Of a DNA stretch of 64,000 nucleotides, positions 5,001 through 63,078 are shown in pieces. Each line of letters opens with the position of its first letter. The first letter of the stretch is position 1. This DNA is from Protoeuglena noctilucae (taxonomy: Eukaryota), in assembly GCA_958009085.1 (NCBI GenBank), contig OY253668.1:1302001-1366000 (forward strand). Direction: 5' to 3'. Made by a program: the position numbers and the translations under genes. The notes below the pieces were generated by a model. The model was not told the DNA's origin. It saw nothing but the letters and a program-made list of their open reading frames with translations, and ran no database searches.

Positions 5001-8000
5001 GATGGATGCGCGTGGTACAGGCTGCATGTGGTGCAAGCAGCGAGCGCCTGTCTCTGCGTGTCCCTGCAGGCGTGTGGGCCATTCATCTCTCGGACGACAA
5101 GCTGAGCATGCCAGTGGACGCCCGCGCAGCGTTGCGTGGGTACGCTGAGGGCGATCACCCACCGACGTCCGTGGCTAGCGGGGCTGCGGAGGGCGAAGGG
5201 GCGGGCACGGGTGATGTGGAGATGCAAGAGGGCGGGCCGGGTGCAGAGACAGGGAAGGGTGCGGCGGGAGCAGTGCCGGGCGAGGGGGCTGTCACAGGAA
5301 AGCAGGGCAGAGCACAGGCCACCAGGGCCGTGATGTGGGAGGGCGGGGAGGGCGACGGGGGCGGTCCGGGTGCTGCCGAGCAGCTTCGCGTCGGTTGCGC
5401 CCCCGACCACCACGGCTTGCTCCTGGCTTCGACGTTCGGCGAGACGCGGGTGTTCCAGACGGGGACGAGGCTGCGGGAGGCCACGGAGGAGCTATCGGCG
5501 CAGCTGCCAGGCGAGTCGAATCTTGCTACTAAGAAGCAGCGAGGACGGCGTTGTGGGCAAGAGCGTCTCTACCTGTCCATCTGTCGCCATGCAAGCATCG
5601 CTGCGCTCTTGCCACCTCCACACAGGCTCGCTCCTCCTGGTTGCCTCCGTCTGCCAAGGCGACCTCGTCCTGGCAGCCCACCCGGGCGGGCTCATTCTCC
5701 TGGAGCCCTGCCGCAACGTGCTTCGGACAGTCGCGGAGGTCACCGTGGAGGACCTGGCGTCGCACGCGGCAGCAGACGGGGCAGGTGCGGAGCCATCACG
5801 ACCCGAGGCGTGTCCACAGCATGAGGCGTGCTCACGGCCCATGGCATGTGCATGCTGCCCTAACCTGCCCTGCGTCGACACGGCCGGCGCATTCAGCTGT
5901 CTCATTTCAGAACATCTTCAGTGCCCACGTGCATCCGTTTCCATGCATGGCAGGGGGCTTGAAGGAGGACGAGGATGTGGAGGTTTTGGCCGCGTCACAG
6001 GAGGGCAACTCTGTGGCGGCCGTGCTGTCGAATGGCGTCGCGTGCGTGGTGCATGCGGTGGCGGGGGCAGGGAGGGTCGGGGGGGCGCTGGTGGTAGACG
6101 TGTCGCCGGCCATGCGGGCCGTGCTGGGGAGGACGGGTGAGGGGCGGCAGGGAGCGGGGGGCGGGGTTACGGATGGGTGGGTGCATGAGGGATGCGAGGG
6201 ATTGCGACCGAGGGGCGCAGCTGCTGTGGTCCCTGTCTCGCGATGTCCCTCTTGCTCACATGCCCTTCCCTCGCAGTTGCCTCTGACTCCATGCATTCGT
6301 CCCTGTCACCCGCAGCTGACCATGTATCGGCTGCGTGCCTTTATGAGGACAGCACCGGGTGGCTGGCCCGGTGTCTGCGGGGGCCCCACCCGCGCGTCCG
6401 CATGCCCGAATACGAGGACGCATTCGAGAACATCTACGGCAAGGAAGGTGAGCGGTTGTGGGCATAGTCATATGTGGAATGAGGAGAGGGGCGGCTGGTG
6501 GTCTCGAGTGCCGCCCTTCTGAACTGCCCTGTGCGTGCGTGCGTGATGATGTGCGTCGTCTGTTGTCTTGGAGTGGACTTGGCGCGGAGTGGACGAGGTG
6601 CATCCGCGGTGTGGCACGATGGCCGACACCCCATGCGCCGTGCCCTGACCGTATCTGGCAGAGGAGGCGAAGGAGGATTCGAATCCCACGTGCGGGACGG
6701 TGCTGGTCGTGGCGCGGGAGTCGGGGGCGCTGGAGATGCTGGAAGTGACGGAGCAGACGCCCGCCCACGCATGGCTGCGCGACAAGACCGACCAGGCTGA
6801 CGGTAAGCAGCGCGCGGCATGGCACATGGCTGAGGGGAGACGGATGATGCGACTGCAAGCTTGCTCTGAAGGGTTGTAGAGACGCCGTGTCATGGCACGC
6901 GCCTCGGGACGCCCGCAGCCGTGCATCGTCGCATTGCGTGCTTGACAGGCTATGTCTAGAGGACTACATGTCAGCCCCGCTCTGTGCCGACGCAGGGACT
7001 GGTGCTCGCGTCCACTTCAGCGACCTGGGCACGGCCCTCCGCGACGTCCTGCTTTGCTCGTCAGTGGGGGACGGCCCCTGGGTCCTTGCACACGAGCAGG
7101 GGCAGAGCAGGGCCGTGGCTAAGCAGGCCGCGGAGGAGGAGGCCGCGGGTGCCGGGCCGCGCGGCGGGAGCGGGGCGGCGGACGGGCGGGCGCGGCACGT
7201 GGTGCAGGTCGTCATGGGGTCGTTTGGGCCGTGCGCGCGCCTGCACGTGGGCACATCGGCAGCCCGCGGAGGGAGCGGCCCGAGTGACGGCGCGGCTGCG
7301 AGACCGCCGGCGGGGCCGTGGCCGGGCGCATCTCCGACAACCAGCAGTGGGGCTGCTGCGGGTGCGGGTGTTGGTGGCGTCGGGCGCAGTCGGGGGACCC
7401 CCTCGGCCCCCTGGACGGAGATCCCTCGCAGCGACGCCCCGATCCTCGCGCTCGTCACGTCAGACGGGGCCGTGCAAGTGCTGCGCGCCTTCCACCCCTC
7501 CGGCACGCACGAACTTCGGTTCAGGCGGCTGCAAGTCCGGGTGCCCTGGCAGCGGCCGTGGGTCGCGGAGGGAGGGCAGCCCGCGCAGGTGACACGTGGC
7601 GTTCGTCTGTCACCTGCGTACTCATACTATGAGCACAAAGCCCTCGTCTTGCAAGAGCTGCCTCACACCGCGCATCAACACCTCATCCCACGCCGAGCTC
7701 CCAAGCCCCTTCGACCTTCCCCGCAGCTGCGTCGGTGTTTGGTGCGGTTCGACGACTTGGGCCCCTCGGAGGGCGCCTGCGGGTTTCTCGTGTGCGGCCC
7801 CGCTCCCTGCTGGGTCGTCGTGCATCGGGGAACGGCCCTCGTGCACCCGTGTGGGGCGGCCGGCGGGGGCGTCCTGTGCGCCACCCCGCTGCACATCCCC
7901 GACTGCGCCCACGGCGTGGTCCTGGGCATGGGGGAGGCGGGGGTCGTGCTGGGCGAGGTGCCAAGGGGGTTCCGGTGAGGGTTCTGAGCTTGCCAGAATA

Positions 8001-9823
8001 GGGAACTATACTGTCTCGGTCGGTGTGCGTGATCTACATGTGCATCGTTGCAAGCGCATCGTGTGCTCTGTCCCTTCGTTCGGCATGTAGCCGCTGCTAG
8101 CCAAATTGCACTCGCTCACCTTGCCGTCGCTCACGCTGTGCTAGCTCACACTGTGCTCGCTCACCCTGTGTGCCTTCCACCCCGCCCCCCGCAGGATCAC
8201 GTCGCCGTGGGTGAGCAAGAAGGTCATGCTGAGGAGCACGCCCCTGCGTGCCTGCTTCTACGCGCCTGCCCGCCTCTTCGCCATTGCTCTGGAGGACCGG
8301 GTGCCCTATGACCCCAACTCGGACACGCCCGTGGGTGTCAAGGGGGCGCGGTACAAGCCCCTGGAGAGGGCGGACGGCACCGACCCGGCCGCAGGCGAGT
8401 GGGCATGAGTTGGGTGCCAGGACTGCCGATGCGCTCTGCATGGCACCTGGCACCGGTGCGCCAGGCCGACCCTGCCGCCCCTCTTGCCGCCCGCAGCCGC
8501 CGCGTACGAGACTGCGGCCGCCGCCGCCCGCCGCGCCGGCGAGGTGTCCCTGCAGCGCGTGCGCCTGTTCGACCCCACCACGTGGGCGCCCCTGTGCCAG
8601 TTCAGCACCGCGCCGGGCGAGGCTGTGATGGCGCTGCGGGCCGTGGCGGTGAAGGCCACGGAGGGCGAGGGCCGCACGGACGCCTTCCTGGCCGTCGCCA
8701 CGGCCATGAGCCACGGGGAGGACTTCCCGGTCTACGGCAGGATTGTGCTGCTGTCGGTCCTGCGCAAGAAGAGCGTAACGGCGGAGGAGCAGACGCTCGG
8801 CAAAGTGTGGGAGGTGCCCGTGCAATTCAGGTGAGAGGGGCCTGGAGAGGAGTGTTTCATAGCTTTGGAACGTGCCGGTGCTTACGGCGGCTCTGCGGCG
8901 GCGTTTCATTCATTGCCCCTGGCCCCGCGCCTCCTGTCCTCCGCAGTCAGCAGTTCCTGGGTGCCGTGACCGATCTGGAGCAGATGGACGGGCGCATCGT
9001 GGCGGCCATCGGCCATCGCATCGAGGTGCTGGACTGGACGGGGCGCCGGCTGCAGGCCCGCCACAAATTCGACGGGCAGGACATGATCCCAGCGAGCCTC
9101 CGGGCCCGGGGGAAGCACCTGGCGGCCTCGGACTTCATCCACGGCGTGAGGCTCCTGCACGTGGTGCCCGAGAGGGTCGTGCAGGACCGACTGTTCCCCG
9201 AGTCCCTGGCGCAGGCCGGGCTGCACACGGGGTGCATGGTGCCGCACGCAATCGAGTTTCTGCCGGGGCCGGAGGACGCGGGCATCACCCTGGTGGCGTC
9301 GGACGCGCTGGGATGCCTGCACCTGTTCCGGCAGCCGCCCCAGGCCGCTGGGCTGTTCGCCCAGCGCATGCAGCACGTGGGGCGGTTCCACCTCGGCGCG
9401 GCCGTCGAGCGGCTCCTGTCCGTGCCCGTGCCGGCCACTACGGCCGCGCTCCACCCGGCCGCGCTGCTCTGCGCCGCGCTCGATGGCTCGGTCGGGGTGC
9501 TCTCGACGCTGTCGGCCCCAGCCGCCGACCTCCTCCGGGAGCTCCAGCGCGCGTCCACCCCGCGCATGGTGCACGCGGCGGGCCTGCACCCGTCCTCGCA
9601 CCGGGGCAGCGAGGGGCGGGGGCCCGCGCCCCCGACCCACGGCACGTTCACGGAAGCGCCCCCGCCCGCGCACGACTCGGTGGTGGACGGGGACCTGCTG
9701 GGCCGGTTCCTGTCTCTGCCGGCCTCGAGGCGCCTGGCCATCTGCGCGCGCGCGGGCGTCGATGCCCAGGAGGCCGTCTCATTGCTGGAAGAGATCCAGC
9801 GCGCCTGGTGGGCAATGCTCTGA
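2064..9823 (+). CDS. CPSF1: Cleavage and polyadenylation specificity factor subunit 1 (CPSF160), multi-exon
   Basis: Spliced exons give VYAQLHAPTAVD, LWGVPESIAVL..RDAVLLSFRDARVA..HTIHTSALHSFE, VRDAVFLHGYAEPLLLVLHE, CFLGSRTGDSFLLKY, GLAPIRD, AFLAVATAMSHGEDFPVYGRIVL, HVGRFHLG, AGLHPSSHR and VVDGDLLGRF, all colinear with CPSF160. TGA at 9821-9823. The start codon is inferred. Confidence 0.93.
8112..8172. repeat. Imperfect 15-bp tandem repeat (gctcacnctgtgctc, about 4 copies) inside a CPSF160 intron
   Basis: ctcgctcaccttgccgtcgctcacgctgtgctagctcacactgtgctcgctcaccctgtg is directly visible. Confidence 0.8.
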
Positions 9824-9977
9824 GAGGCCGCGGAGCGAATCACGGTGCTTCTACCAATCGAGATCATAGTGGGTGGCGTAAGAGTATATGCTGCATGGGT
9901 TTGGATTTCAAGGACGTCGTCTCCTAGATCGGTCGAGCGCAGCATGGAGTGTTGTTGGAGTGCGGCACGCGTCCACC

Positions 9978-10721
9978 CTACGTGCTGCTAGCCAGCCCGC
10001 GGGCGGAGGCTTCCCGGCGAGGGATGGCATCGAAGAGAGGGTCGCGCTGCTCTGCCTCGCACGCCTGCGGGAGTGGCACCCCGCCGTAAAGGACGCGGGA
10101 GACGAGCGTGGCCGGCAGGTCCTCCATCGCAGGCAGCGGCTCGCTCGAGGCAGCGGCCGAGGGGCGGTCGTGGGGCTCAGATGCAGCGGGGAGGCACGCG
10201 TACTGACTGGGCACGAGGGTGTGACGGTCCACTAGGTTGTTGATGGAGTCGGGGTCGTTGGCTGCAGGCGGGCAAAGCGTGGGGTAGCTGGTAGGCAGCC
10301 GGGGTCGGCAACAGACAGACGAATTGTAATTGAATGCTGCTGGAGACGATCTCATCACAGTATGTCGCGCTGCATGTCGACGCTGCCGGCGCACTCGCCT
10401 TGGAGGAAGTTGGCGGCGTGGTACCCAGCGAGGTAGACAATCATTCCTATCGACAGCCAGACGGGCACAGCGATGACCCAGTACCGAGATGGGTAGTACG
10501 TGATGCCCAGGGCGTCCAGGACGCTGCTCGGGACGCAAGCCCAGGCCACGTACAGGCCTGCGCACAAACCGTCGTCACAGCAGCAGCTCAAGGGGCGTCG
10601 GTGCAGCGGCGAGCACAGCATCAAAGCGGAAGTAACCACCGTACTCGCCTAAGACGGCAGAGCTGGAAATCCACCCCACGAAGCCGTACACTTCGAGCGA
10701 AGACACGCGGTCCTTCGCCAT
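9978..10721 (-). CDS. PIGP: GPI-GlcNAc transferase complex subunit PIG-P, 3 exons
   Basis: MAKDRVSSLEVYGFVGWISSSAVL|GLYVAWACVPSSVLDALGITYYPSRYWVIAVPVW...|..PLPAMEDLPATLVSRVLY matches the PIG-P motifs EVYGFV, LGITYYPSRYW and P..D.P...V...LY. Confidence 0.92.
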
Positions 10722-11342
10722 TCGTGCTTCCTAGGCGTTCTGAAATCTCCCAGACGTTTCTGACGCATTCACATGGACGGAATAAACATGCACACGCTGC
10801 GAAAGGGCGCCAAACCTTTTGGTAGGGGCACAGCGGTCGTGCGAGCCAGCAGCGTCCCTTGGCCTCCGCGTGGGGCGCGAGGGCGCCCCAATGCGCGGGG
10901 CAGGCGACACGAGGACGCGAACAGGGTCGTCAAACACGAGCGCAGCTGACAAGTGCGCGCAGATCCCAAAACCACGCTCTGACAAGGCGCCAGCGGCCCA
11001 GTTGAGGCCCTGGGACCAGCATCTCAGCACCAGTGCCTGCGAGCGGACCCATCCTTGCACCCGCGACTAAGCGCAGCAGTTCGCGCCGTCCACGCGCGTC
11101 GCTGAGGCAGAAGCGAGGGCAGGGGATCGAGAGCAGGAGAGGAACGGGCCACTGCATTCGCAAGTGCCTTAATTTGTACCGAGGATGCCCTGACGGGCGC
11201 GGGGGACAAGGTGAGGTCGCGGCCGCACCGAGCGCCGGTGTCGGTGGCCAGGCCATGCGGATCCGGGCTCAGCTGGGGCTCCGATGGGTGACGGGACTGA
11301 CACTGAAGGCAGTGGGAGTGCCTCCCCCGCAGGTACTTCACG

Positions 11343-13428
11343 ATGTCGCTCTACGCCATGCCCTTCGTGATCGTCAACCTGGGTGCCGAGATGGTGTTCA
11401 TCCTGGACCAGAGGCTCGGGGCGCAGAAGGTCGCGAAGGTGCGTGTCATGCGCCGGATGCGCCGGATGGCCGGACGGCGCCCCCGCGGGCGCTGGCGAGC
11501 CACAGCAATGCGTCCTGCCCTGACGTCAGCACCGGCCGTCGGCCCGCCGCAGGAGCGCGCGCAACAGGTCATTGACGACTTACTGCTCAACATGTTCCAA
11601 GTGGACTTTGTCAACGAGCTCTTCCGGCCCCAACGCGTGTACTCCATCCCATCCACGCGGGCCGTGTTCCAAAAGATCGCCCACTCCTCCATCATGAAGC
11701 TTTCGGAGGAGTCCATGGAGAAGCTCTACGACCTCATGCTCATGGGCCTTAAGTACCAGGCGAGCCTCGCCCCGCTCCCGGCGCGCAGCCCAGGGGCTGG
11801 CACCGCCGGCGGTGGCGCGAGCAGGCGCGCACCCCTCGCCCCCGGTCCCGCAGGTCCTCTGCATCGAGCGACCGGAGCAGGTTGTGGAAGTCACGTTGCG
11901 CCACCTGGACATCATGTCTGCCATGGGCCAGGCCCCCGCCGTGAAGGAGTTGTTGGGGTCAGCACGAGCACGCGTGCTGCACTTCCAGACCGACAAGTCG
12001 GCCGGGGACTGGCTGCTGGTACGCCGCACGATCTGCCAGTTCCTCCAGGACAAGCGCATCAAGGTCTCGCTGTTCCTACAGGCGAGGCGACACCCGACTT
12101 CCTAGCGACGCTTGCGCCACCACTCAACGGGACGCTGACTGCCCCGCCTGCCTCTGATGGCGCAGGAGGGCATCCAGTCGGGGGATGCCAAGATGTTTTT
12201 GAGGGCCCCGCAGCGTGAGGCTGGGCTGCCGCCCCCCGGCACCTGGCGCGTCTTAGAGCCCAAGAGCAAGGAGGTCGCAGCAGAGGGGTTCCAGCAGCTC
12301 TCCAAGCGCGCCAAGATGTGAGGAATCGCGCTCGAGAGGCGCGCAAGCGGGGCACGCCCGGGCCGGGCTCATCGGCCCCCGCCACCTCTGAATGCGACTG
12401 CCTACCTTCCTGTCGCAGGGCGGACCTGTGGTACAAGCATCCGGACCCGATCGGCACCAATCTGTACGCCGTCCTGCACACCAAGTGCGTCGACTTGCCC
12501 ACCTACCTGGAGCCCGTGCCGGCCTCGTCGTCTGCCAGGACGCAGACGGGCTCGGATTCGGGCACCCTGCCTCCCAAGGCCGAGCCGGGGCCGAGCGCGC
12601 CTCCCCCGCCGCAGGCGGGGTGGCCGGGGGGGCTCGCGACCGGGCCGCGTGGACCGGGGTCGGCTGGCCCAGAGCGGGTGCCGGAGTGGAAAGGCCACGT
12701 GCCCGAGTCGCCACAGAAGGTGCGCGGGCAAGGCGTTGCTCGGAAGAGGGTGCGCCGGCGCACGGGCCTGGACAGTTTGCCTGGCCGCGCAGGGCTTGAG
12801 CTTTATTGCTGGCCCGCTTGCAGGCGGACGTGAGCGCCATGTTCGGGATGGCACGGGGCGGGGCGGCGCAGCCGTCGCCGCAGTCGGATTTGGACGCGGC
12901 TCTGAAGGACATGGGCCGGGCGACGGAAGGGGAGACGCTGGTACGGAGCCGCGCAATTGCCACCTCGCTGCGGCGCGCTATGGCTCCCCTTGGTGTGGGC
13001 CAGACCGTGCGCTCTCTGACGACCTTTCCACCGCCCGACTTCGCAGAGCAAGCTCATTGGCGTGGGGGCCTCCAGGTCTGGCACCGATTTCAAGCTCAAG
13101 CTCGACAACCTGTTCGTGGGCAAGGGTGCCGATCGCTTCGACATGGAGGACCACAGCGGGCTGCACGTGCGGCGGCAAGAGACCGAAGGCGGCGTGGCAC
13201 GCAAGCCCGACCTGGTCGTCGATGGGGGCGCACAGGTGACGTGGACGGCTATGCTGGCGTTTGCTTACAGAGGGGAGCGTGTTTGTGACACCTGTCAGCG
13301 TGCTGTGTCTGCAGCGTGAGGACTACATGAAGCGGATCGGGCGCCTGGACTTGAACGCTGGGCCAGCAGAGCCAGCGGGGCAGGGGGCCAAGGGCGACGA
13401 CCTGTTGGATCTCATGGATGGCTTGTGA
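11343..13428 (+). CDS. OSCP1: Organic solute carrier partner 1 (OSCP1/NOR1), multi-exon
   Basis: MSLYAMPFVIVNLGAEMVFILDQRL...ELFRPQ...IAHSSIMKLSEESMEKLYDLMLMGLKYQ|VL...KVSLFL..., GTNLY, and C-terminal DDLLDLMDGL*. Probable 5'UTR intron at 11211-11332. Confidence 0.92.
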
Positions 13429-13734
13429 TTCGCGCTTATTGAAACAGTGATGGGGTCGCGCAATACCCTGCGCCAGTTGACGGAACCCGCGCCTTGTCTG
13501 GCACATGCCGCTTGCTTCTGTCCAGTCGCCGAGTTCTCCACCGTATGCATTGTCTCGCGTGGGTGGGTCCTGGCCGCGCTACGCGTTGCTGTGTGCCAAC
13601 CGGTGCCAACCTGCGTGCATAGTGTGCCCTATTGGCCGCTGTGTTTTCAGGTTGCCTCCAGTAGCTCTCCCGTGATCGCGTTCGACCTTCGACTGGCTTG
13701 CTGAACCGCTTGGGAGAGTTGCCGAGCGCCAGCC

Positions 13735-16089
<2,355 letters not shown>

Positions 16090-17592: not shown

Positions 17593-18832
17593 CTACAGTT
17601 TCCTCACTCGGAGCATCGAGCGCGCCCGGAAGTAAGCATGTCTCTGCATGGGAGGGGCAAGGGATGCCACCGTCAGGGACCTGCATCCTCGCCCAACGTG
17701 CGGAACCCACATGGAGGCTGGGCCGTCACGCAAGCCCCCTCTTCCTGCGTCCCAGCCAGCCGGGACTAGCTCCCTCACCTTGGTCGCCTTGCCGAACAGC
17801 CCGCTCATGCCGACGCTCTCGTCCTCGTCCGCCTCCCACGACACCTTCGCCGCCCTGCGTGGGGCCCGGTGGCAGTGGCATAAGCATCGCGGCCATGCCG
17901 TTGCGCCCGACGCAGCCACGCACGGCGCCGTGCGCCCTCACCCGTCCTTCAGCGCGCGCTCGCACGTCTCCCAGGAGAAGCGGACGAAGGACGGGAAGCC
18001 AAACACGGGGTCCACACTGCCCGCCATCCATGCCTTGGTGACAGGGTCGGAGGGGTAGCCCGACCCGAAGGACGTGCTGGGCGCCGCGCCGTCCTCGAAC
18101 CGCTCCTTCCACGCAAAGGCCTCGGTCTCCCGGTCCCTGGTGACCTTGGCGGCGATGGACGCGGCGCCGACGATGGGATACGTCGCGTCCGCCTTGGACT
18201 CGACCGTGAAGCGGATGCCCGGGAACTTGTCCGACAGGATTTGCGCGTACCTGTCCGCGGCGCCCACCGTGTCGACGTACGCCTCGACCACGTTGACCCC
18301 GGCGTCGAGGACGGCCTGGACGAGGCCGACCGTCGACTGCGTGGCTATCTGGTTGAGCGTGACGCGCCCGAGCGACAGCATCTGCGGCCACGGAACGTCA
18401 TGCCGCGGGTCCCGCACCGCTCCTTTCGTGCAAGATGCCTTGCTGGCACCACCTGCGCGTCCAGGGGGCTCGCCTGGCTGGAGATGCGCTCGGCGGAGAT
18501 CACGTCCACCGCGAAGGCGACGCGGTCGTCGTCGATGAGCTTGGAGAAGAGCGCGTCGCGGCGCTGGGCTGTCAGCTGCTTGGAGTCGTGGAAGCCGGAC
18601 GAGGCCAGGTGCTCGGTGGAGGTGGTACTGGCGACGGCGATGCCGCAGACCATCGGCCCCAGGACGGGGCCCCGTCCCGCCTCATCTGCGGCGGCCGTAC
18701 GCAGCGCGTGGGCTGGGCGCCCCCGCCGCCGCCCCCGTGGCTGCCCCGCGACCCGGGGCGCCGCTCACCGATCCCGATCAAACAAGGTTCCCGAATCCAG
18801 ACGGGGGAGCTGTTGAGGTCCTCGAGGCGCAT
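17593..18832 (-). CDS. RNASEH2A: Ribonuclease H2 catalytic subunit A, multi-exon
   Basis: [70 protein letters not shown]. Confidence 0.96.
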
Positions 18833-21839: not shown

Positions 21840-22516
21840 ATGATGGCGGCGGTGGCAGCGATGGTCCCCCCCAAGAAGGCCCAGCCGGGGAATACCAGCC
21901 GCTTGATGCCCTCCGAGTTGATGGATAAGTGTGTCGGGCAGCGAATGTGGGTGAGCGCCTCGACGATGCACGGCGCGAAGGGCCGGGCGGCTCCCGACGG
22001 AGACACCGCTTTGGCACGGCCCTGACGCCGCCCCGGGACGCTCGCGGAGCGGTTGGACTGCATGATAACATGCCTTTCCTCTCGCAGGTACTCATGAAGG
22101 GCGACAGGGAGTTCGTGGGCAAGCTGGTGGGCTTCGACATCTACGTCAATATGGTGCTCCAGGTGCGCGAGCTTTTGCCGCGCGGATCCGCCGAAAAGCC
22201 AGCTGTTCGAGCTGTGGCATGCATGAACATGTGGTCGGTTGACTGCTGGAGTCGCTCTGGACGCTGCTTCGCGCAGGACGTCACGGAGATCGAGCGGACA
22301 CCCGAAGGCGTCGCCCTCAGCAAGGCGAGCCAGCGCCCGTGCCGTGCCACCACGCACCAGCGCGTGCTCCAACAATCCTGCAAGCATTTCTGCTTAGGAT
22401 TGCTGGTTGATGGCACGCGCCTTGCTCCCTGTTCGCAGCTGGACCAGATTCTGCTGAATGGCAACAGCGTCGCGATGATGGTGCCGGGTGGGAAGCCAGA
22501 CGACGTCGACATTTGA
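21840..22516 (+). CDS. LSM5: U6 snRNA-associated Sm-like protein LSm5, 4 exons
   Basis: LMPSELMDKCVGQRMW|VLMKGDREFVGKLVGFDIYVNMVLQ|DVTE...K|LDQILLNGNSVAMMVPGG. Introns at 21951-22087, 22163-22276 and 22325-22438. Confidence 0.95.
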
Positions 22517-25600: not shown

Positions 25601-26123
25601 CTTGGCCTCATGCACGAGGGTGTAGAGGTACTCCACCTTGCGGCTGTAGACGTGCACCGATCCCTGCAGGTGGCAGCCGCGCGGGACGTCGATGGGGCGC
25701 GCGACGGTTGCCCAGCTATTCGCAAGACCTTCGACAGAGCTGTGGGCAACGCGCCTGGATGACGAGGGCCGCCTCCGCGAAGTTGAGCTTCTTCCCGTTG
25801 CCGAAGTCAAATGCGAGGCCGCCCAGCTCCTCCAGATAGCCCTCCAAGTCCGCTGCGGAGGCGCAAAGAAACTTGTCAGCGACGTTCCCGGGCTCTAGAG
25901 GGACGGCGCGGACCGTGCGAGTCGCACGGACCCTCAGGCCGGGGAACGTCGTCAAGTCGCCGTGGCTCATCGCGCTGGGCATGCGGGAGGCCTGCGCGGC
26001 CAGGGATGCTCTCTCACCCGCTAGATCAATATTCCAATTCGCTGCCAGATCGCGGATGGGCTGGAGGAGGTTGGAGAACCGGCTCCACTCCCCGTCAGCG
26101 CCTCGCGTGGGCTGGCTGGCCAT
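22695..26123 (-). CDS. NCAPH2: Condensin II kleisin subunit H2 (CAP-H2), multi-exon
   Basis: RFSNLLQPIRDLAANWNIDLA|ADLEGYLEEL...LNFAEAALVIQ|GSVHVYSRKVEYLY; WAPLDP...KPWRKG; WRARVEPLLEDQDRRGPFDMYEDG; SRGFAALLQLVNAGNV. The last exon is less certain (alternative stop at 22883). Confidence 0.93.
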
Positions 26124-30527: not shown

Positions 30528-30618
30528 CAGTCGAATGCGCCTCCGCTCCTCAGCTATAGAATGCGTGATGCTTCAAAGCCACCATGACATTTCACAATTA
30601 CTAGTTCACGAGTCACCG

Positions 30619-47917: not shown

Positions 47918-50900
47918 TTGGCAGCGTTAGGGTTAGCTCAGTGCCCTCCGCCAGAAGTGCTCCAGCGTATCGCGTATCTTGCCCTGAGCACCGCATACGT
48001 CTATCCCGCCTTCCAAAACCACGTTAGCTGTGCCTCGCGGCTCGCGGGTCGACGCTGGGACATGGTCCATGGCCAGCCCGCCCTGCCCTCCTGGGGAGGC
48101 CGCAGCGCTGGAAGCCCCAGCGCTGGACCGATGTCACCATTTCCAGCTGCAGCCCGTTCTGAAGGTATTGTACGAACTGTACCGTGAGGAGAGCGCCGAG
48201 GAGATCGCTCGGCAGCGATGGCGCGAGGACGTGGAGGCCTTGGGTGCGTTTCTGCGCGCGGAATCGCCTCTGCGCAGCGCTTCGCAGCTGCCTACGTGAC
48301 ATTTGGACACCATAGTGTGCGCTCCGAGCTCTGGGCTGCGGCTAAGCGCGCGTGAGAGGAGCAAATATGGCGTTAAGGTACCGTGCTCGCCCGCAGCGCT
48401 CGCGTCCAAAGCGACCCTTGTTGCTGTCATTGGAGCGTGCGGCATGGACCTTCCCATGCGCGTCACGTCAAAGCTTGGTCTCGCGCTGCGCGTGAAGCTT
48501 CAGGCGGAGGCGGAGGGCGATGACCTAGCTGGGACCACGGAGCTGGTGGTGCCGCGCGACTCGCAGGACCCTGCCTTGTCCCAGGCCCCCATATCCGTGA
48601 GTATTTCGCCTTGCGCCAGTCGCGTTGTCCGTGAGTGTCGCCAGAGCACGAGCCCCGCTACCCTAACCTGCCTGCAGTGGTGGGAGCCAGGGTCGTATTT
48701 GTCACGGGCAGCCAAAACCGTGGCCCGCCTCGACTTCAGCCGGCTCCAGCTGGCCGCGTCGTTCAAGGACAGCACCCGCCTGCTCGCCGGGCAGCTGGTC
48801 GCGAGGGTGAGCGGCGGGGAGAGCGAAGGGGCATTGCGCCTTGCGATGCCAGAGGCTTCGCTCACGTTCCACTCCTCCGTCGCGGGCACGCAGGCCCCCC
48901 GCCTCTTTCCGTCCCTGACCTCCCTCACCCTCGACCCGACCCACGTGGGCCTCCTCTTCTCGAGAGGGGGGCCACTCCCGTCCGTCACTCACCTCCGCCT
49001 CTGCCGTGTCCCCTCGCACAAGAACCGGCACCACTCCTTGTCCGCGGCCATCGCCGCCCTCTTCCCCAACCTCTCCGTCCTCCAGTCGTCGTTCCACCTT
49101 CTCCCGGGCTCCCTCCTGCTCCTCAAAGGGCTGCCGCTCACCGAGGTCCCCGCCACCGCCACGCCCCTCCACAGCCCCCCCGACATCTCCTGCCCCGGGC
49201 TCGAGCACTTCGGCTCCTCCCTGACTCGCCTCTGCCTGGACGCCGTCGTCGACCGCCCGCCCGTGGGAATGCGCGGGGACGAGGCGGGGACGGGCGCCGC
49301 GTGGGAACCCCGCCTGTCCCTGCCGCCCCTCCCGGAGCTCCGCGACCTCCGAGTCACGTACTCCCAGAACTGCTACCTGAGCGGCGCGAGCGCGCTGCAG
49401 ATGACGCTGACGGCCCCGTGCCTGACGAGCCTCTCCCTCTCCTCGGGCGACGCCATCCACGGGGATTGCCTCCTGTCCATGCTGCGCCTGCCCGGCCTGC
49501 GCCGACTCTCGCTGTCGAACCTGACGTGCGCCGGGCACGACCGCGCTTTCCAGCCCGCCGTCGACGCCCTGCGGCCCATGCCGTGCCTGGAGCGCCTGCA
49601 CCTGTCCAGCGTGACGCTCGACGGCCCCGCGTGGCAGGCCGTGCGGGTGGCTGCGCTCGGGGCGCCGGGGCTGGTCGAGGCACGGCTGAGCTACGTGGGG
49701 ACGGACGACACCGTGCCAGGTGAGGGACATGGCAGTGTGCGGCGCGCGACGCGTGCGTGTCAGCTGCTCTGACGCGGCGTGTGACCCGGCCCTCGCAGAC
49801 CCGACGGGCCTGGAGGCCCTCCGCCCGAGCGCGTCGTCCCTCCGCTCCCTGACGCTCACGGGGTGGTCCCGGGGCTCCATGGAGAGTTGGGGCACCAACG
49901 TCGCGCGCTTCACGCGCCTCACGTCCCTCACCCTCGCCACCGCGCCCTGCATGCCAAACGAATGCTGGACCCTCCGCGCCCTGCGCAACCTCCGGGAGCT
50001 CGACCTCACGCTCGCGAGCCCCAAGGGCGCGGCTGAGCCGGCGTCGCCCTCCACGTCCAGTCCCCCGGCGCCCGTAGGCGCCCTCTCGCAGGCAGGGCTC
50101 TCAATGACCTTTGTGGACCTGGGTCGCCTGGCCCGGCTGCGACAGCTGCGACTGCGGGTCTCGGGGGTGCCCGTCACCACCGGGCTCCTCCTACAGCTCA
50201 CGCCGCTCCAGCGGCTGCAGACCCTGCGAGTGCACGCGCGCTCGTGGGAACTCGACGAGAACGTCCTGGCGCTGGTGCGGGACCCGGGGTCCTTGCCGCA
50301 GCTGCGGAGGGTCGACTTGCGGCGGCCCAACAAGGCGAGAGGGCGCCTGGGTGTGTCCGCTGGCAGCAGCCGGGCTCGCTTGCAGGCTCCCCTTGACGAC
50401 CCACGCGCGCTCCTCTCCGCGCTCGCAGCCCAGCAAGGTGGCCTACTGGGCGTCTCTGCTGAACGCGGCGCTGCTCTCCCGGCACCTGTCCGAGCCCATC
50501 GGTGAGCTGACGCTGCGACTGCTGCTTGCATGCGCGGGTCTCTCTGTTGCACTCGCGGGCCTGCACGGAGATCCCGCCCCAGCGGCCTTGACTGCAGAGC
50601 GCCGGGAGCTGGATTGGCGCGACCTGCACCGCCAGTTTGGCGGCGAGGGAGACACCGACTCGGAGGACATGCGGTCCGGGGCGAGCGCGGTGGTGGATGG
50701 GGAGGCGAGCGCGGATGACGGTTCGGGTGATGGCGAGGACGAGACTGACTCGGACTGGGAGGGCAGTGAGTCGGACGAGGGGTCGACGACGGACGACGAC
50801 GACGATGTGGACGTTGATGACGATGAGGAAGTGGAGGAGGAGGATGAGGAGGAAGAGCCTTTAGAGGACGAGGTCGACGAGGCAGAGCCGGAGGGTGGCG

Positions 50901-51408: not shown

Positions 51409-53472
51409 ATGGTGGCCGCCCCTGTGGGGGCGGGGGCCGCGATCGTGGCCGTGGGGGTCGTGCTCGTACGCTACCTGTTATACACGCAATCGGGTCTTGA
51501 CATGACGAGTGAGGGGCGCGCAAGCGTGACGTTCCTACGCCCCGGCCACAACGACCCTTTCTCAGACCTCCTGACTCGCGCGCCCCGCAGTCGCGGTGCT
51601 CCAGAATCAAGTGGACTTGTTGGAGAAGCGGATGGCAGTTGTTTCCGCGGGCCTCGGGCTGGGACCAAAGGTGCGGCCCTGCGGCTGTCCTCGGCATGCT
51701 TTTCAAACGTTAACCGCCGCCCCTGATGGCCCAGCGCCCCCGCGATGCCGCGCAGGACATCCTCTACGCCTCCGCCGCGCTCGTCACGCTGTGGTACGGC
51801 TTCATCATCTTCTTCCTCGTCGTTCCCAACTCGCTCGTCTCGCTTGTGCTGCCCAAGTCCCGCGCCCTCGTCTTTGCGGACAGCCCGTCCCCCTTCCGCT
51901 TCTTTAGAAGCCCTCCTGGTGCGGGCACTCTCCCCGCCGCCGCGAGAGTGCGTCTGCTTTCTCCCGGGGGGCAGGACCGCAGCCTTTCGCAGGTGCAAGC
52001 GCTCCTGGACGATCCCGAGGGACCCCTCGTCGTGGACCTGCGCGACGGTCGCGTGGCTGGCCGCGGGCAGTTGGTGCTCTCTCGCCAGGGTGTCTCGCTG
52101 GTGTCGGGCACGGTGGCGTGCGAGGGCGGGCTGGCCTTGCGGGCCAAATCGTGCGAGGTGGTGGGAGTCACCGTGGAGGGCGTCGTGGGGGCGGACTCGG
52201 TGGCCGTGGATGTGTCCGGCGAGGAGTGCCGGCTGGCGCGGTGCAGGGTGGAGCGCAACGCGGGCTTTGGCGTCCAGGTGGCGCGCCTGCCAGTGCAGCC
52301 CGGGCGTCTGTGCAGGGCTTTACTAGGGCCTCTCTCAGTCCGGCAACTGCGCATGCAGATCGGGAGGGGCGCCCGCGCCACGCTGGCGGGGTGCGAGGCG
52401 TCCGACAACGGCGCCCACGGCGTCCACGTGTCCGAGGGTGCGGTGGTGGTCCTGGAGAACTGCCGCATCTCTGGGAACGTGGACCTGGGGGTGCTGGCGT
52501 CCGAGCGGGGCACGCGCCTGGACATGACGGGCTGCGAGATCCGGGGCAACCGGGGCACGGGTCTGCGGGCTGCGGAGGGGGCCCGCGTGTCGATAGCCAA
52601 AACAGTTGTGACGCGCAACGTCGGCCCCGTGGGCAACGGCGTCATGGCCGACGGTCCCGACACGGCCGTCACCATCACCGAGGTGCGGAGCTGCGACTGG
52701 CTTTTGCCCTGGCGAGCGCTGCCGAGGACCCCATGCATCGCGCGTCTCGGGCCAGCACGCCACCGAGCGCACGCCACCACTCGCCTGCAGGGCAAGGTGA
52801 CCAAGAACCAGGGTTGCGGAGTCATCGCCACGGAGGGCGCTACTGTCACGGCCAGTCAATGCGAGTCCGTGTCTTACAACGACTCGCACCAGGCAAGGGC
52901 TCGCGCTGCACCAGCACGTGGGCTCGCCAGGGTCCCAGGCATTGCCGCCTGTGACTGCGCAACGGCAGCATCCATCCGCTTCGCTCTGCAGGTGTGGGCC
53001 TCCGGGACCGGGACGACCGTGACGGTGGCGGGGGGAGCCAAGTGGCGCACGCAGATGGGCTCTAGCAGGGAGGTGCCGCTGTCGGCGCAGGCCGGCGCGC
53101 GCATCGACGTGTCCATGGGCATCGTGGGGGGTCCAGGGGCGTCGGTCGCTGACGTGGTCGGTCCCAGCACCCGGGTGGTGCTGACGGACTGCAAGGTGAG
53201 GATACATCCAGGGAACGCACTTCACCCCGTTCGCACCCTCCTTGGCTCGAACCCTTGAAGCACGCATTGCCATGGCACGCTCCACCACGGGGAGCTTCAT
53301 CCTTGCATTGTCGCAGCCGCCGCGTGTCTCAAGGTCATGCAGCGTTGGCAATCGTGTTCTGCCCTGCGCGTGCCCTCAGATCGCAGACACCTCCAAGAAC
53401 GAGGTCGTGGCGGCCGTGCTCGAGCCCACGACGTACGTGGACAAGTCGATGGCGCCCGCGGGCGGCATGTAA
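51409..53472 (+). CDS. Membrane-anchored right-handed beta-helix (pectin-lyase-fold) protein, multi-exon
   Basis: Two hydrophobic segments (AAIVAVGVVLV; AALVTLWYGFIIFFLVV) with a short coiled coil between them, then beta-helix repeats (CRVERNAGFGV, CEASDNGAHGVHV, CRISGNVDLGV, CEIRGNRGTGL). TAA at 53470-53472. Confidence 0.72.
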
Positions 53473-55407: not shown

Positions 55408-58400
55408 CTAGAACCGCGATGCGTCCTCCTGGGCCCGGATCTCCCCTGACAGCTTCGTCTGCACGTTGTCGATCGTGGTGTCCGACAGATCCAACATCTC
55501 GGACGCCTGGCCCTGCTGCTTCTTCAGCATGCCCCAGTACACCCCTCTGCGAGGCGGCAAGACACGGCGCATCGCCACCCCTCAACAAGAGCGACGGGGT
55601 GGGGAACTGAGCCCGTGGTGGCCGCGCATGGCACTCACCGCCTGGCCACCAGCTCCACGTGCGTGCCCTGCTCCACGACCCGGCCCTCGCCCATGACGAC
55701 GATCAAGTCGGCGTTGCGCACGGTGGAGAGGCGGTGCGCGATGACCAGGACCGTGTGCTGCCGCTCGCGCATGGCGCGATCCAGGGCCTGCGCGCCAGGG
55801 CAACGGTCGATGCAAACGCCTCCGCGGCCCCGATCCAGTCATACCGTGCCTGACGCCCCTCACCTCCTGCACATGCGCCTCGCTTGTTGCGTCCAGGGAC
55901 GCCGTCGCCTCGTCCAGAAGCAACAGCTTGGGCTCTCGCACCAGCGCCCGCGCCAGGGAAAGGCGCTGGCGTTGGCCGCCCGACAGCAGCCGGTCCGTGA
56001 CGTGGGTGCTGCAGGGACACGAACCGTTGCCGTCTGGCGTGTGAGTCGTGCCGGCGGTCAAGGCCCCATGAATCGTGCTATCGAACCACGATGCAGACTC
56101 CCACCCGGTACCTAGTCTTGGGACTCGCCTGTACCCCTGCGGCAGCTCCCGGATGAAGTGATCGGCGGACGCCTGCTGGGCGGCGCGAGTTACGCGCTCC
56201 TGGATGGTGCGCTTGTCGGCCCTCTCTCCCGCGCCCTCCTCGTCCATGCCGTACACGATGTTGTCAGACACCCCCGCACTGAACAGCGGCGAGTCCTGCA
56301 CCACCGCCGCAACCCTCCCTCGGTACCATCGCATGTCCACCTCCCTCAGGTCCACCGCCGTCGACGACCCCGCGTGCGGGCCCGCCCCGCTGCCGTTGCC
56401 GTGGCCGTGGCCGTTGCGCGCGTCGTGGCCGTTCGCGCCAGAGGTCCCCGGCAGGAGCTCCACGGCACCCGAGTCGGGGTCGTACAGCCGCTGCAGGAGG
56501 GCCACCACCGTCGACTTGCCGGACCCCGACGCCCCGACCAGGGCCGTCATGCGGTTCGGGGCCACCTCGATCGTCACGCCGTCCAAGGCCTTCTTCCCCG
56601 GGCGGCCTGGATACTCGAACGTGACGTCCCGCAGCGCCACGCCGCCCTGCCAGTCGGCCACCGTGAGGCCCGCCGGCGGCGCAACTGCCCCCGCCGGGAC
56701 CGCCGGCGGCCCCAGCTGCTTGGAAGGCTGCGCGTCGAGGAAGCCAAGGACGCGCTCGCTGGCCCCGACGGCCTCCATGAAGGACGCAGCCTGCTCCGAG
56801 ACGGCCAGGGCAGCCCACAGCACGAACTCGACGTAGAAGACGAAGGTCGTCAGGCTATCCACCGACATGCGGTCGGTGACCACCAGGAACCCCCCCGCCG
56901 CGATCGCAGCGATCTTGGTAAGCCTGCGACGACGGGGCAGGCGAGTGGCTGACGGCGCGGCTGACTGCGCTGGCTGAGGGAGGGTCCGTCGCGAGTTCAT
57001 GTGAGAGTCACGCGGGGCTCACCTGGTGAGGGTGAGTTGGGAGAAGAGGTAGGACCCATAGGCAAAGGACGAGCGCTGGGACAGAGCGAACATGTGCAGG
57101 AGGCACTCTCGGTACCGCTTGCCCTCCAACGGCTCCGAATTAAAGGCTCGCACGAGTCGATTCAGCTTGAACGCCTCCTCCGCCACCTGGTTGGACGAGG
57201 CGAGTGCGTCCTGCTGGGCGCGTGACAGCACCCGGGAGTACGACCCGTACACAGCTGCGTGGAGGGTGGTTGCAAATGGTTAGTGTGGGCCATTGGCCAC
57301 CTGCGCAGGCAGTGCCACTGAGACGGGCATGTGCTCACCCGTGATGCCCAGCATCAGTAACACGATGGCGCCCGTGAGTGCGAGGAGCTTGGGGCTCATG
57401 ACTGCCAGGTACGCCGTCCCCGTCACCACCTGAAGACCGTTCCTCAGGGCCACGTTGAGGTTCGTGCTGACGGTCCTGGAGATGACCTGGGCGTCACTCG
57501 TCAGCCGTGATGTGAGCTCCCCGACCGGCTCCTTATCGAAGAAAGCCACGTCCTGGGAGAGGATCCGCAGGAAGAGGCGGCAACGAAGGCGGTAGGTCAG
57601 GCGCTGATTCAGGGCGGAGAAGATGATACCGCGGATGCTGGCCAACAGCGAAAAGGCCAGGCTGCAGGCGGTGAGGGCCACGATCGACGGCCGGAGGACC
57701 TCCCATGGCTGCGTGCGTGTAATCGCGAGGATGCACTGGGACGTGTAGTGCGGGATCCCCATCTCTGCCAGGGCCGCCACTGTCAGGAAGAAGAGGCCCC
57801 CTGCAGCTAGGCGCTTGTCCCTGGGGTTGTCCAAAAGCCGGGGCAGCTTCTTGAGGATCGAGCCCTGCGGGGAAAGGGGTCCCGACGAGGTGACCGGGTG
57901 AACGGGTGGGAGGGAACGAGTTGGGAAGATACCTGCCGGGGTGGGCGAGGCATGGTGGACAAGAGTGCTAGTTGTGGGCCGTCACCATGGACTCTGCCGC
58001 CTCCTTCTCCCGTTGCAGCTCCTTCTCCAGCATGCCGATCCACCAGCGCGGCCTCAGTAGCTCTCCCAGCGGTGGCATCGCAAGCCGCGGGTCGTCCGTC
58101 TCGTCCCCCTGCCCTGAAGCCTTTTCATCCCCTCGATAAGCTTCGAACGACGCGGTCGCCGAAGACGCTGCGCTGGTAAAAGCGCCTTTCCCTCCGCGCC
58201 GTAACCTCGCGCGCGAGCGCCACAAATTTGTGCTGGTCGTGCGGGCCCAATCCAGCCCGAAATCCCGATCCGTCTTGGACGGTGTTGATCCGGGAGGCAA
58301 CCACCTGGACCTAAAAGGCAGGCATGCGGCGCTCGCGCCTACAAGCGGCCGCACGGGGCGCACGCACGAGCAAAACGACGCGGCCTGCTCCTGGGCCCGC

Positions 58401-58726: not shown

Positions 58727-60781
58727 TTAGGCCCTGTTGGCCTTGGTGAAGGACTCGAGGTACTCGACCTCCTTCTTGGATCCGATGAAGAGGGGCACGC
58801 GCTGGTGCACCGCGTCAGGGCTCACGTCGAGCACGCGCTCCTGGCCTGTAGAGCCCGCGCCGCCCGCCTGCTCCGCGATGAAGGACATGGGAGCGCACTC
58901 GTAGAGGAGCCGGAGCTTGCCGTTCGGGCTCTTCTTGTCCCCCGGGTAGCCGTAGATGCCGCCGTAGAGCATCGTGCGGTGGAAGTCGCCCACCAGGGAC
59001 CCGATGTAGCGCGCCGAGTAGGGCTTGCCGCCCCAGTTCTCGGGCTTCTTCAGCGAGTCTGCGGTGAGCGCCGAGCGCGGGGTCAGTCGGGTCAGCCGCC
59101 TCGCCTCACCTGGTCGTGGCATCTCATCCCGCAGTAGTTACTCACCCATGTAGTTCTGCACGCTCTTGTCCCACAGCTGGTAGTTGCCCTCGTTGAACGA
59201 GTAGATCTTGCCCGCCTCGGGGATGCGGATGCGGTCGTGCGAGAGGATGAACTCGCCGACCAGGGGGTCGAGCGTGAAGCCGTACACGCCGTCACCGACC
59301 GTGAGCACCAGGACCGAGGCCGACGAGTAGAGGCAGTAGCCGGAGCACAGCAGGGAGCTCCCTGGCTGCTGCACCGAGGCCACGCACTTCTTCATCATCT
59401 CCTCCGCACCGTCCACCGACATGTCCACCTGGCACCTGCGGGTGTGCACCGGGCCAAGGGTTCAGTGCGCGGGCGCAGCTTGCATACGCCGTCACGTCCA
59501 GATCCGACGCATGCCGAGCGCGGTCTCGACCCGGCGAAGCGCGGCTCGGTCGGGCTCCCTCCGCCCACACGCCCCGCTGCTGCCCTCACCCCTCCGACTC
59601 CGAGTAGACGCCCCAGATGGAGCCCACCGAGATGCCGGCGTCGATGTTCGAGGACCCATCGAGGGGGTCGAAGACCACCACGTACTTGCCCGAGTACGTC
59701 TCCTCCACCAGCACCGGCACCGGGAGGTCCTCCTCCTCGGACGCCAGCACGCCGGTGCGGCCCGACGAGCGCAGGCAGTTCTTGAAGACCTCGTTTGAAA
59801 TCACGTCCAGCTTCTTCTGGTCCTCGCCCTGCACGTTGGCCGCCCCCGCCAGACCTGCAAGGGCGGCGCGGCGGCGCATCCATGGACATCCGCGGTCCAA
59901 GCCAGCGATGGCGCAGGTCGTCGCTTGCGGAGGAAGCACGGCAGCTGCGGGAGACTCGCCCGTGAGGTTGGAGATGCCGGAGCGGTTCACGAGCGTGGCA
60001 ATCTGCTTGCACGCCAGCGCGATGGAGGCAATCACGACGCCCAGCTCGTTGTCGATGTTGCCCTTGCGCTCCTGCTCGAGCAGCCACGTCGTCAGCGTCC
60101 GCACGGCGTACTGGGAGTCCATCGCGACCTTGGCGGAGTCCACCAGGGCGTTCATCTGCAGGCACCGCCGCGAGGATCACCCTCCAGGGCCGCCAGCAGC
60201 CACCCTGATGCAGCAAGCACAGCCCCCCAGGTCACGGGCCATCTTGCGCAACCCGGAGACAGAGGCTGGTCGCGGCGCGGCGAGAGGCGCGACGGATTAT
60301 CGACCCCAAAGTGCAGGGCCCCAGCGCCCAAAGCGCAGGGGAGCCCGCGTCGGCTTGCGAGTCCGTACTTGCAAAATCGCTTGATCAAAAGCAGCCAGCG
60401 CAATGTGCCGAGGTGCAGGCGTCGCGTTCCGTCACCTGGGCCTTCACCATCGTCCTGCTGCGGGGAAGCTCGCCCTGCCCGACAGAACGGGTCGCCTGCG
60501 CACAAATTCAATAGTGCGGTGGGATTCCAGCGCAGGTCGGGTCCAGGGGAGCGCGGCCGTAGCGCGCCACGGCTGCAAGGCCGACCCCACGTTGCGCCTG
60601 GCGTCGACAGGGGGGCGCCCGTCGCGGTGAGGATTGCGTTGCATCATATATGCGCGGAATCGCTGCGGGATGCCGCGCGCGCGCCCACCTGCGCCGTCAG
60701 GGGCACCGCCTGCTTGGAGGCCCCCTGCTTGCAGGCCCCCGAGGCCCGGAGGGCCACGCTGCTGCCCAGAGCGGCTGCCAT
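58727..60781 (-). CDS. Chloroplast fructose-1,6-bisphosphatase with transit peptide, multi-exon
   Basis: [14 protein letters not shown]...RTMVKAQ transit peptide; [92 protein letters not shown]. Confidence 0.97.
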
Positions 60782-62351: not shown

Positions 62352-62456
62352 CGCGGATCAGTCGATAGCTATTGACGTGCTGAGCAGCCGCATGGGGGAT
62401 AGACACTTTCAAAAAAGGAACCAGTGCGCGACCCATCTCACAGCCGTGCGTTCGCT

Positions 62457-63078
62457 CTATTTGGGGTTCCGCAGCACCAGGATGACCGAGTCGCCTCTCA
62501 AGAACATCTTAGAGATGAAGCGGTCCCGGTTGACGGGCTGAGACCCCTTCTTGCCCTTGCCCGTCTTCGGAATCTGCGATGCAGGTGCCGAGGGACCCGT
62601 CGTCACGCTCTGCCTCGTGAGCCCGCTCCCCCCGGAACCCCCCCGGGCGCGGCGCGCGTCGGCAGCAACGTACGGCGCGATTCTAACGCGCATTCACCTC
62701 CGTCCACATCTCCTTGACGTTCTCGAGGATCATGTTGCAGTGCCGGTCGAATGCCTTGACCCTCCCAAGCAGCTTGTGGTTGTTCCGGCAGCTCACCAGC
62801 ACCTGCGGATCAATCACATGCAAAGCGTTGCCAGGAGGGCTGGGAGGGACGCCCATCGTCCGCCGGCGTGGCGGATCGGCCCTAGCTGCCACCGCGCCCC
62901 CTTTCTTGAGTCTCCGGGAGCGAGCCCCGCCACGAGCGGGCCTCCGCGCCCCACGACGGCTGCTGCTTGCCTGCGAGTTGGTCTTGACGCTCGTGGTGAG
63001 CACGGAGAGAGGCCCCTTCTGGAACGAATCGATCTCCTCCTTCTCCAGGTCGTCGACCGTCTTCTGGGCCGTCGCCAT
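62457..63078 (-). CDS. SNRPD2: Small nuclear ribonucleoprotein Sm D2, 3 exons
   Basis: [67 protein letters not shown]...[22 protein letters not shown]. Confidence 0.98.

Follow-up and report, generated by a model that had tools for sequence, protein, structure and literature searches.

GC-AG introns as a sizeable share of the introns in a 64-kb window of the Protoeuglena noctilucae genome

Introns that begin with GC rather than GT and end with AG (GC-AG introns) have a mean share of 1.2% over 121 plant genomes, some algae included, according to a survey (PMC6310983). Here we describe such introns in 64,000 nucleotides of the genome of the alga Protoeuglena noctilucae (contig OY253668.1, positions 1,302,001 to 1,366,000; hereafter the window), for which a prediction made from the letters alone (the original prediction) had pointed to an unusual frequency of GC donors. 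In GC 5′ splice sites, a stronger remaining consensus is described as offsetting the mismatch to U1 snRNA (small nuclear RNA) at the second intron position, +2, and in some lower organisms rich in GC such sites are reported to be far commoner (PMC3167603). The G+C content of splice sites has also been found to correlate with that of the genome (PMC7072748).

For Emiliania huxleyi, GC is reported in about 55–65% of the donors, with a value of about 60% (PMC4028052, PMC7779022), which its authors attribute to genomic GC content (PMC4028052). In the pelagophytes Aureococcus anophagefferens and Pelagomonas calceolata, about 14–17% of the introns are predicted to be GC-AG (bioRxiv 10.1101/2024.10.30.620910); pelagophyte genes are said to carry 0.2–0.9 introns each, part of which are introner elements whose ends are GT or GC (bioRxiv 10.1101/2021.10.25.465678). 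A further genome of interest is that of Pedinophyceae sp. YPF-701, given as 28 Mb with 70% G+C and 7,940 genes; in a term search of the main text of that preprint, the word “splice” was absent (bioRxiv 10.1101/2021.10.04.463119). The baseline of about 1% that the original prediction took for most eukaryotes agrees with the 1.2% of the plant survey (PMC6310983), but not with the much higher shares that, in the sources cited above, are already on record for GC-rich algae.

In the window, GC-AG introns make up about 11–16% of the introns. Our curated models comprise 24 genes, all with open coding sequences (CDS), and 106 introns, 89 of them GT-AG and 17 GC-AG; the denominator is approximate, a possible further GT intron in CPSF160 (7231–7431) having been left unsplit. 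Taken together, the GC donors amount to 17/106, or 16% (Wilson 95% confidence interval (CI) 10–24%), and every one of the 17 introns restores an open CDS in its model. If only verified donors are counted, two by transcript and ten by colinearity with homologues (approximate for one of the ten, at 56128), the share is 12/106, or 11% (Wilson 95% CI 7–19%). If the true rate were 1.2%, at least 12 in 106 would be expected with a probability of 7e-9; if it were 2%, with one of 1.6e-6. The rate of about 10% proposed at the outset thus stands and is, if anything, low.

Evidence for individual GC-AG introns

The verified GC-AG introns are listed below, with the last exon bases in lower case before the stroke.

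11760..11853, plus strand: OSCP1; cag/GCGAGC, 94 nt; crossed by P0175, P0179 and P0180
12082..12165, plus strand: OSCP1; cag/GCGAGG, 84 nt; crossed by P0175, P0179 and P0180
5511..5625, plus strand: CPSF160; cag/GCGAGT, 115 nt, phase 1; gene finder and P0123
8395..8496, plus strand: CPSF160; cag/GCGAGT, 102 nt; P0123 alignment
10558..10648, minus strand: PIG-P, intron 1; tag/GCGAGT, 91 nt; PF08510 and homologous loci
10262..10398, minus strand: PIG-P, intron 2; aag/GCGAGT, 137 nt; absent from the original prediction
18382..18473, minus strand: RNase H2 subunit A; cag/GCGAGC, 92 nt; homologues and profile
22325..22438, plus strand: LSM5; aag/GCGAGC, 114 nt; human LSm5 alignment
25664..25754, minus strand: condensin II CAP-H2; cag/GCGCGT, 91 nt; PDB 9f5w_H
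62803..62970, minus strand: SmD2; cag/GCAAGC, 168 nt; PDB chains
59855..59959, minus strand: fructose-1,6-bisphosphatase (FBPase); cgg/GCGAGT, 105 nt; absent from the original prediction
56009..56128, minus strand: ABC transporter; cag/GCGAGT, 120 nt; chosen by the gene finder; absent from the original prediction

The most direct evidence concerns OSCP1. A homologue search with the OSCP1 exon between its two GC donors as the query returned P0175, a protein of 466 aa with 100% identity, whose source is a JGI contig no longer than 1719 nt. P0175 equals the spliced model over residues 1–367, through five junctions that include 11760 and 12082, and then enters intron 6. Its 90% cluster also contains P0179, whose 467 aa equal those of the complete 8-exon model and whose sources are four Logan contigs, none longer than 1609 nt, and P0180, a spliced fragment of 381 aa. 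Since the source contigs are shorter than the genomic span, which is 2086 nt for the 8-exon model, P0175, P0179 and P0180 come from spliced transcripts. Both OSCP1 GC introns are absent from all three spliced contigs, and the GC-AG introns 11760 and 12082 are thus shown to be spliced out of the mRNA. Two other members of the same cluster, P0177 and P0178, are pieces of genomic open reading frames (ORFs), and P0178 enters the 12082 intron and stops. The Oscp1 profile matches at 17–85 and 87–162 across the 11760 junction; for the exon after 12082, Pfam gave no match. Intron 6 of the same gene (12941–13046, plus strand; GT-AG) is retained in P0175 and removed in P0179, both forms being present in public contigs.

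For CPSF160, the nearest full-length relative is P0123 (1600 aa). With this protein in tblastn, one high-scoring segment pair (HSP) ends at 5512 and the next begins at 5625, both at residue 709 (..ELPG/SLL..), and the alignment has a gap of 34 codons exactly over 8395–8496 (GTDPAA/AAAYE), where reading through would meet a stop after 4 codons. The two CPSF160 introns, which had been proposed mainly on restoration of the reading frame, therefore coincide with boundaries and a gap in the P0123 alignment. P0122 and P0174 were set aside as evidence of splicing, being unspliced genomic ORFs. Used as a query, the last CPSF160 exon found no match in the search for longer homologous proteins, and none in a metagenome scan. 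In another intron of this gene, several imperfect direct copies of a GCTCGCTCAC-like unit of about 10 nt were spotted by eye at 8080–8160 (plus strand).

In PIG-P (9978–10721, minus strand), both introns are GC-AG. Around the first of them, PF08510 is matched at 3–18 in exon 1 and at 19–69 from the first residue of exon 2, the match in exon 1 alone being weak (E = 0.14), and at 10648 the GC-spliced model is free of gaps against six intron-free loci (L001–L004, L007 and L008). An in-frame GT at 10639, 9 nt downstream of 10648, would insert 3 aa. The second intron, at 10398, was chosen by the gene finder and separates PF08510 positions 19–69 from 74–121 with 4 residues between, again without a gap against L003, L007 and L008. 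A metagenome scan with PIG-P exon 2 yielded 18 loci, of which the best has 68% identity over 25 residues and none belongs to this organism.

In RNase H2 subunit A, the 14 best of 120 homologues align without a gap to the GC isoform at 18473. The alternative GT at 18452, which is in frame and lies 21 nt further downstream, entails a 7-residue insert that is present in none of these 14, and a hidden Markov model (HMM) of the 120 homologues scores the GC isoform at 321.5 bits versus 309.7 for the GT isoform. When the Pedinophyceae protein P0002 is used in tblastn, its HSP stops at 18474, that is, at the base before the GC donor. As far as comparison of proteins can tell, homology favours GC over GT both at 10648 and at 18473.

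The exons that flank the middle exon of LSM5 correspond to residues 27–52 and 69–89 of human LSm5, and the 16 aa that are then required between them are exactly the length of the middle exon, which on its own has no PDB match. At 25754, residues 61 and 62 of human CAP-H2 (9f5w_H) stand at the exon ends. The SmD2 exons align with residues 6–37 and 39–72 of PDB chain 8xi2_d and with 9–41 and 43–76 of the human chain, their ends falling at residues 37 and 38–39 of the former and 41 and 42–43 of the latter. Across 59959, the FBPase profile runs from 2–47 (residues 20–64 of 65) to 51–131 (residues 2–84), which is exactly colinear, while across 56128 the ABC_tran profile runs from 1–97 to 107–137 with 14 residues between, so that colinearity is approximate.

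All nine donors that the original prediction had held to be firm are borne out, 11760 and 12082 by transcript-derived proteins and seven by colinearity, exact to the residue, with homologues, with Pfam profiles or with PDB chains. Four GC donors were found beyond its list: 10398, 59959 and 56128, backed by homology, and 25218, backed by the gene model, all on the minus strand.

Motif, gene models and candidate sites

Each of the 13 coordinates in the original prediction does show, on its strand, an exon-terminal AG followed by GCGAG, GCAAG or GCGCG. Over both strands of the window, AG/GC[GA]AG occurs 31 times, AG/GG[GA]AG 23 times and AG/GA[GA]AG 13 times. The motif alone is not beyond chance in this composition, and therefore every site was tested by frame and homology. 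Gene models were built with our own Viterbi gene finder, which uses codon log-odds, weight matrices for donors and acceptors and phase-aware introns, and whose self-training on the window admitted GT donors only. In the GT-only run, CPSF160 was terminated at 8408 and its remainder was fused with OSCP1. As a control, seven other donor dinucleotides were permitted at one common penalty. At a penalty of −5, the gene finder chose 88 GT, 12 GC and 1 GG donors and none of the other five; at −3.5, it chose 87 GT, 12 GC, 3 GG, 2 CT and 1 CC; at −2.3, 84 GT, 16 GC, 4 GG, 3 CT and 1 CC. GG is as frequent as GC in the DNA of the window, and therefore the preference of the gene finder for GC is specific.

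Some errors of the gene finder were mended in the curated models: the first LSM5 exon had been missed, and GT had been taken over GC at 18452 and 10639. In CAP-H2, it had read through the first intron (25853–26017, minus strand), a GT-AG intron of 165 nt that is in frame and open; when it is left unspliced, the alignment to the human chain shows an insert of 52 residues.

Five further GC-AG introns are candidates.

25099..25218, minus strand: CAP-H2; cag/GCGAGG, 120 nt; gene finder and open frame
28619..28706, plus strand: unassigned gene; cag/GCGAGC, 88 nt; frame
39136..39303, plus strand: MORN-PIP5K; aag/GCGAGC, 168 nt; gene finder
50335..50428, plus strand: LRR protein; aag/GCGAGA, 94 nt; gene finder
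52893..52991, plus strand: beta-helix protein; cag/GCAAGG, 99 nt; gene finder

PDB searches with the exons around 25218 gave matches at chance level (E = 0.17 to 1.9). The other four are the sites that the original prediction had called likely; their frames are indeed open and three of them, all except 28619, were chosen by the gene finder, but neither homology nor RNA supports them. At 28619, where the coding score is weak, a phase-0 ORF (28151–28618) joins the frame of the exon from 28707, and reading through would meet a TAG at 28637–28639. The exon that follows 39136 opens with a MORN repeat, and an in-frame alternative GT lies at −9. At 50335, the LRR_14 match extends to residue 171 of the 178 in the upstream exon. 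The 99-nt stretch at 52893, which is in frame and open, might instead be a coding insertion.

Several GC donors were rejected. The donor at 20820 (plus strand) belongs to a gene at 19264–20938 (plus strand) that, from its translation, we take to encode a 14-3-3 protein; it is an artefact, the conserved ..LWTSDMQ having a GT after it at 20580. Donors at 19472 and 19313 (minus strand) are antisense to this putative 14-3-3 gene, that at 189 (plus strand) in PHO4 is indistinguishable from a GT at 186, and those in antisense shadow models are artefacts. AG/GCGAG is also found outside the coding models at 811 (plus), 26491 (minus), 47636 (plus) and 61437 (plus), in some cases just upstream of gene starts; these four motifs could be introns of untranslated regions (UTRs) or chance matches.

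Donor context and the origin of the GC donors

Over six positions complementary to U1, verified GC donors have on average 5.42 matches versus 4.06 for GT donors (Mann–Whitney p = 1e-7). The pattern AG/GN[AG]AG, which we call a perfect flank, is seen in 10 of the 12 verified GC donors versus 11 of the 89 GT donors (Fisher p = 1e-6). Among all perfect-flank donors, GC accounts for 15 of 26 (0.58), which compares with a C/(C+T) ratio of 0.648 in the interior of the introns (binomial p = 0.54); among the other donors it accounts for 2 of 80 (Fisher p = 1.3e-9 versus the perfect-flank class). The base at +3 is G in 15 of 17 GC donors and in 82 of 89 GT donors, that is, of the GTGAG type. All 106 acceptors are CAG, which is partly imposed by the matrix of the model, and neither acceptors nor polypyrimidine content differ between the two classes; intron length shows no clear difference (median 124 versus 102 nt, p = 0.06).

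Minor, U12-type introns have the donor [AG]TATCC(TT) and a TCCTTAAC-like branch site. The donor [AG]TATCC is found in 0 of the 106 introns, a count in which the TCCTTAAC-like branch site was not scanned for separately. Nor is there a repeated intron family, as introner elements are in Micromonas and pelagophytes: an all-against-all blastn of the 106 introns gave 3 reciprocal matches of 20–32 nt. An ortholog of PIG-P intron 1, at the same position and in the same phase, is present in contigs L012–L015, whose G+C is 0.34–0.42, and it has a GT donor (G/GTACTT and G/GTCCTT; contig spans L012:1150–1560 and L015:2139–2552). Judged from these sequences, a T-to-C change in an old intron would be compatible with the GT donor of the ortholog.

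We consider it probable that the GC-AG introns are ordinary U2-type spliceosomal introns with C at +2, in which full pairing elsewhere compensates and GC pressure lets such donors accumulate. In the window, GC is used almost only where all other U1-pairing positions fit, namely, −2A, −1G, +3G/A, +4A and +5G. At these sites, the C·A mismatch with U1 at +2 would be offset by full pairing elsewhere, which would make T and C nearly equivalent there, and strong AT-to-GC substitution pressure may then move +2 toward the background C:T ratio. At weaker donors, T at +2 would stay under selection. A special U1, U6 or protein factor would be unnecessary. Two of the causes offered in the original prediction, stronger pairing and GC-biased erosion of donors, fit the data, namely, the match of 5.4 of six U1-complementary positions versus 4.1 in GT donors, the agreement of +2 C:T in perfect-flank donors with the intron background, and the GT donor of the PIG-P ortholog in contigs of low G+C. 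A third cause, relaxed recognition, is contradicted, GC being nearly confined to the strongest sites.

An unlikely alternative, in our estimate, is that a specialised or relaxed recognition of the 5′ splice site, through a variant U1, an altered U1-C, or contacts of U5, U6 or Prp8, accepts C at +2. The GC-AG share is some ten times the plant average, GC is as common as GT in perfect-flank donors, so that C at +2 costs little there, and a second U1 species would be compatible with the data of the window. However, a U1 that pairs with C would need no compensation, and hardly any of the donors whose flanks are imperfect are GC; the need for flank compensation therefore argues against a variant of U1, U6 or U1-C. 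The same compensation is described for standard spliceosomes (PMC3167603), GT is still in the majority, with 89 of 106 introns, and other GC-rich algae are reported to have equal or higher shares, attributed to GC content (PMC4028052; bioRxiv 10.1101/2024.10.30.620910). Compensation and GC pressure are therefore favoured over a special recognition system. The conventional 5′ end of U1 is of the ACUUACCUG type and the standard U6 box is ACAGAGA; an Rfam scan of the 64-kb window returned 0 matches at the gathering score, with no snRNA among them.

It could also be argued that many of the GC donors arose in gene modelling as artefacts, with a nearby GT used at the real junction or a stretch of coding insertion in place of an intron, and that the true GC-AG share would then be ordinary. 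The chance abundance of AG/GC[GA]AG, 31 versus 23 for its GG analogue, speaks for this, as do the false GC donors that the gene finder gave at 20820, 19472 and 19313, the open frame through the 52893 intron, and the fact that 12 of the 15 retained GC donors assessed have an in-frame GT no more than 60 nt away, as 10648 also has at 9 nt. Against it, 11760 and 12082 are proven by spliced transcript contigs, and ten more are colinear with homologues, the GT alternatives adding or removing residues that are found in no homologue. Within 60 nt of 11760 or 59959 there is no in-frame GT at all, and the verified sites alone, at 11%, would be most improbable at a true rate of 2%. We regard this explanation as highly improbable for the set as a whole. 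Selection might, on another view, keep GC donors as regulated or weakened sites, for an alternative choice of the 5′ site or for tunable intron retention, in which case they would not be neutral products of GC pressure. In 10648/10639 and 18473/18452, an in-frame GT lies 9 or 21 nt downstream, as would be expected of alternative 5′ sites; an intron is retained in one OSCP1 transcript contig; and a review describes GC as enriched where genes of human, nematode and Arabidopsis are alternatively spliced (PMC3488318). Yet the intron retained in OSCP1 is the GT intron, whereas both GC introns are removed in three spliced contigs; +2 C:T in strong-flank donors equals the neutral intron ratio; and, of the 22 genes that contain introns, 13 have GC introns, without any pattern of function. 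We therefore hold regulation of this kind to be unlikely, too.

Several points weigh against the explanation by compensation and GC pressure, and against the rate on which it is built. Support at the level of transcripts extends to 2 of the 17 GC junctions, and five donors (25218, 28619, 39136, 50335 and 52893) are supported by frame or model. The 89 GT introns are themselves mostly model predictions, and the curated models contain corrections by hand in CAP-H2, 14-3-3, LSM5, RNASEH2A and PIG-P. The rate is that of one 64-kb window and not of the genome. Both the initial search for GCGAG and the matrix of the gene finder would under-detect GC donors with weak flanks, by which the apparent compensation may be inflated. 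GT ancestry is read from one intron, in contigs of unassigned taxonomy.

A bolder extension, which we rate as rather unlikely, though worth stating, is that 10–16% of the introns are GC-AG genome-wide in this lineage and that its spliceosome has lost the discrimination between U and C at +2 when the U1 helix is otherwise complete. If this were true, +2 would be a neutrally drifting position, and the cause could be a change in U1, in U1-C or in a contact of the catalytic core, beyond mutation pressure.

The window, its relatives and known systems

The window is a dense packing of intron-rich eukaryotic genes, with a uniform G+C of 65–70% along its 64 kb; the genome of this marine chlorophyte has about 68%. 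Pfam families in the predicted exons include PHO4, CPSF160 (CPSF_A), OSCP1, GAR synthetase, RNase H2A, LSM5, condensin II CAP-H2, NSE3/MAGE, a second gene of the RSE1/DDB1 family, an ankyrin protein, LIN37, MORN-PIP5K, an ALMT-like protein, an LRR protein, two beta-helix proteins, a nucleotide-sugar transporter, the ABC transporter, FBPase and SmD2; PIG-P came out of a separate Pfam scan. One window thus holds two large members of the RSE1/DDB1/CPSF1 beta-propeller family, at 2172–9823 (plus strand) and at 30619–35838 (minus strand), the latter matching Beta-prop_RSE1_2nd.

The top homologue of RNase H2A is from Pedinophyceae sp. YPF-701, with 64% identity, and the next ones are from other green algae; therefore, by its sequence affinities, the organism is classed as a chlorophyte, and one distinct from strain YPF-701. 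The last CPSF160 exon has an identity of only 33% with YPF-701. Marine metatranscriptome runs contain 55–66% of the sampled words from 8300–18299 of the window, and four runs of “organism A” contain all of them. This sharing of words is consistent with an expressed marine alga.

In practical terms, gene finders that admit only GT would break or fuse genes here, and GC donors should be admitted when this alga and its relatives are annotated; GT-only prediction is reported to mis-model Emiliania likewise (PMC4028052). The window also offers a small, clean example in which T and C at +2 behave as neutral only with perfect flanks (15/26 versus 2/80), and by which, within the green lineage, the composition of splice sites is tied to the GC pressure on the genome. 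In the literature covered, with the supplementary tables of the plant survey outside its scope, no such GC-AG share was found for a green alga or a plant.

By their GC start, AG acceptor, lack of a U12-type donor and stronger U1-complementary consensus, the introns described here are like the GC-AG class of U2-type introns of animals, plants and fungi. They depart from the plant average in their share, 11–16% as opposed to 1.2%, and in having G rather than A at +3, as the GT donors of this alga do. In composition and gene density, the window resembles YPF-701, which is also the nearest named relative by RNase H2A. With the two pelagophytes, it shares a similar genomic G+C and, by the figures reported for them, a GC-AG share of the same order, but it has about 4–5 introns per gene and no repeated intron family, so that the sharing of introner-type elements does not extend to it. 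Emiliania huxleyi, a haptophyte of 65% G+C, is likewise described as a GC-rich marine alga with canonical AG acceptors and a high share of GC; in contrast to it, the donors of the window are GT in 84–89% of cases, GC is confined to donors with perfect flanks, and the lineage is that of chlorophytes. The GC-AG introns of the window are thus a further instance of a trend known from GC-rich algae and do not point to a new mechanism of splicing.

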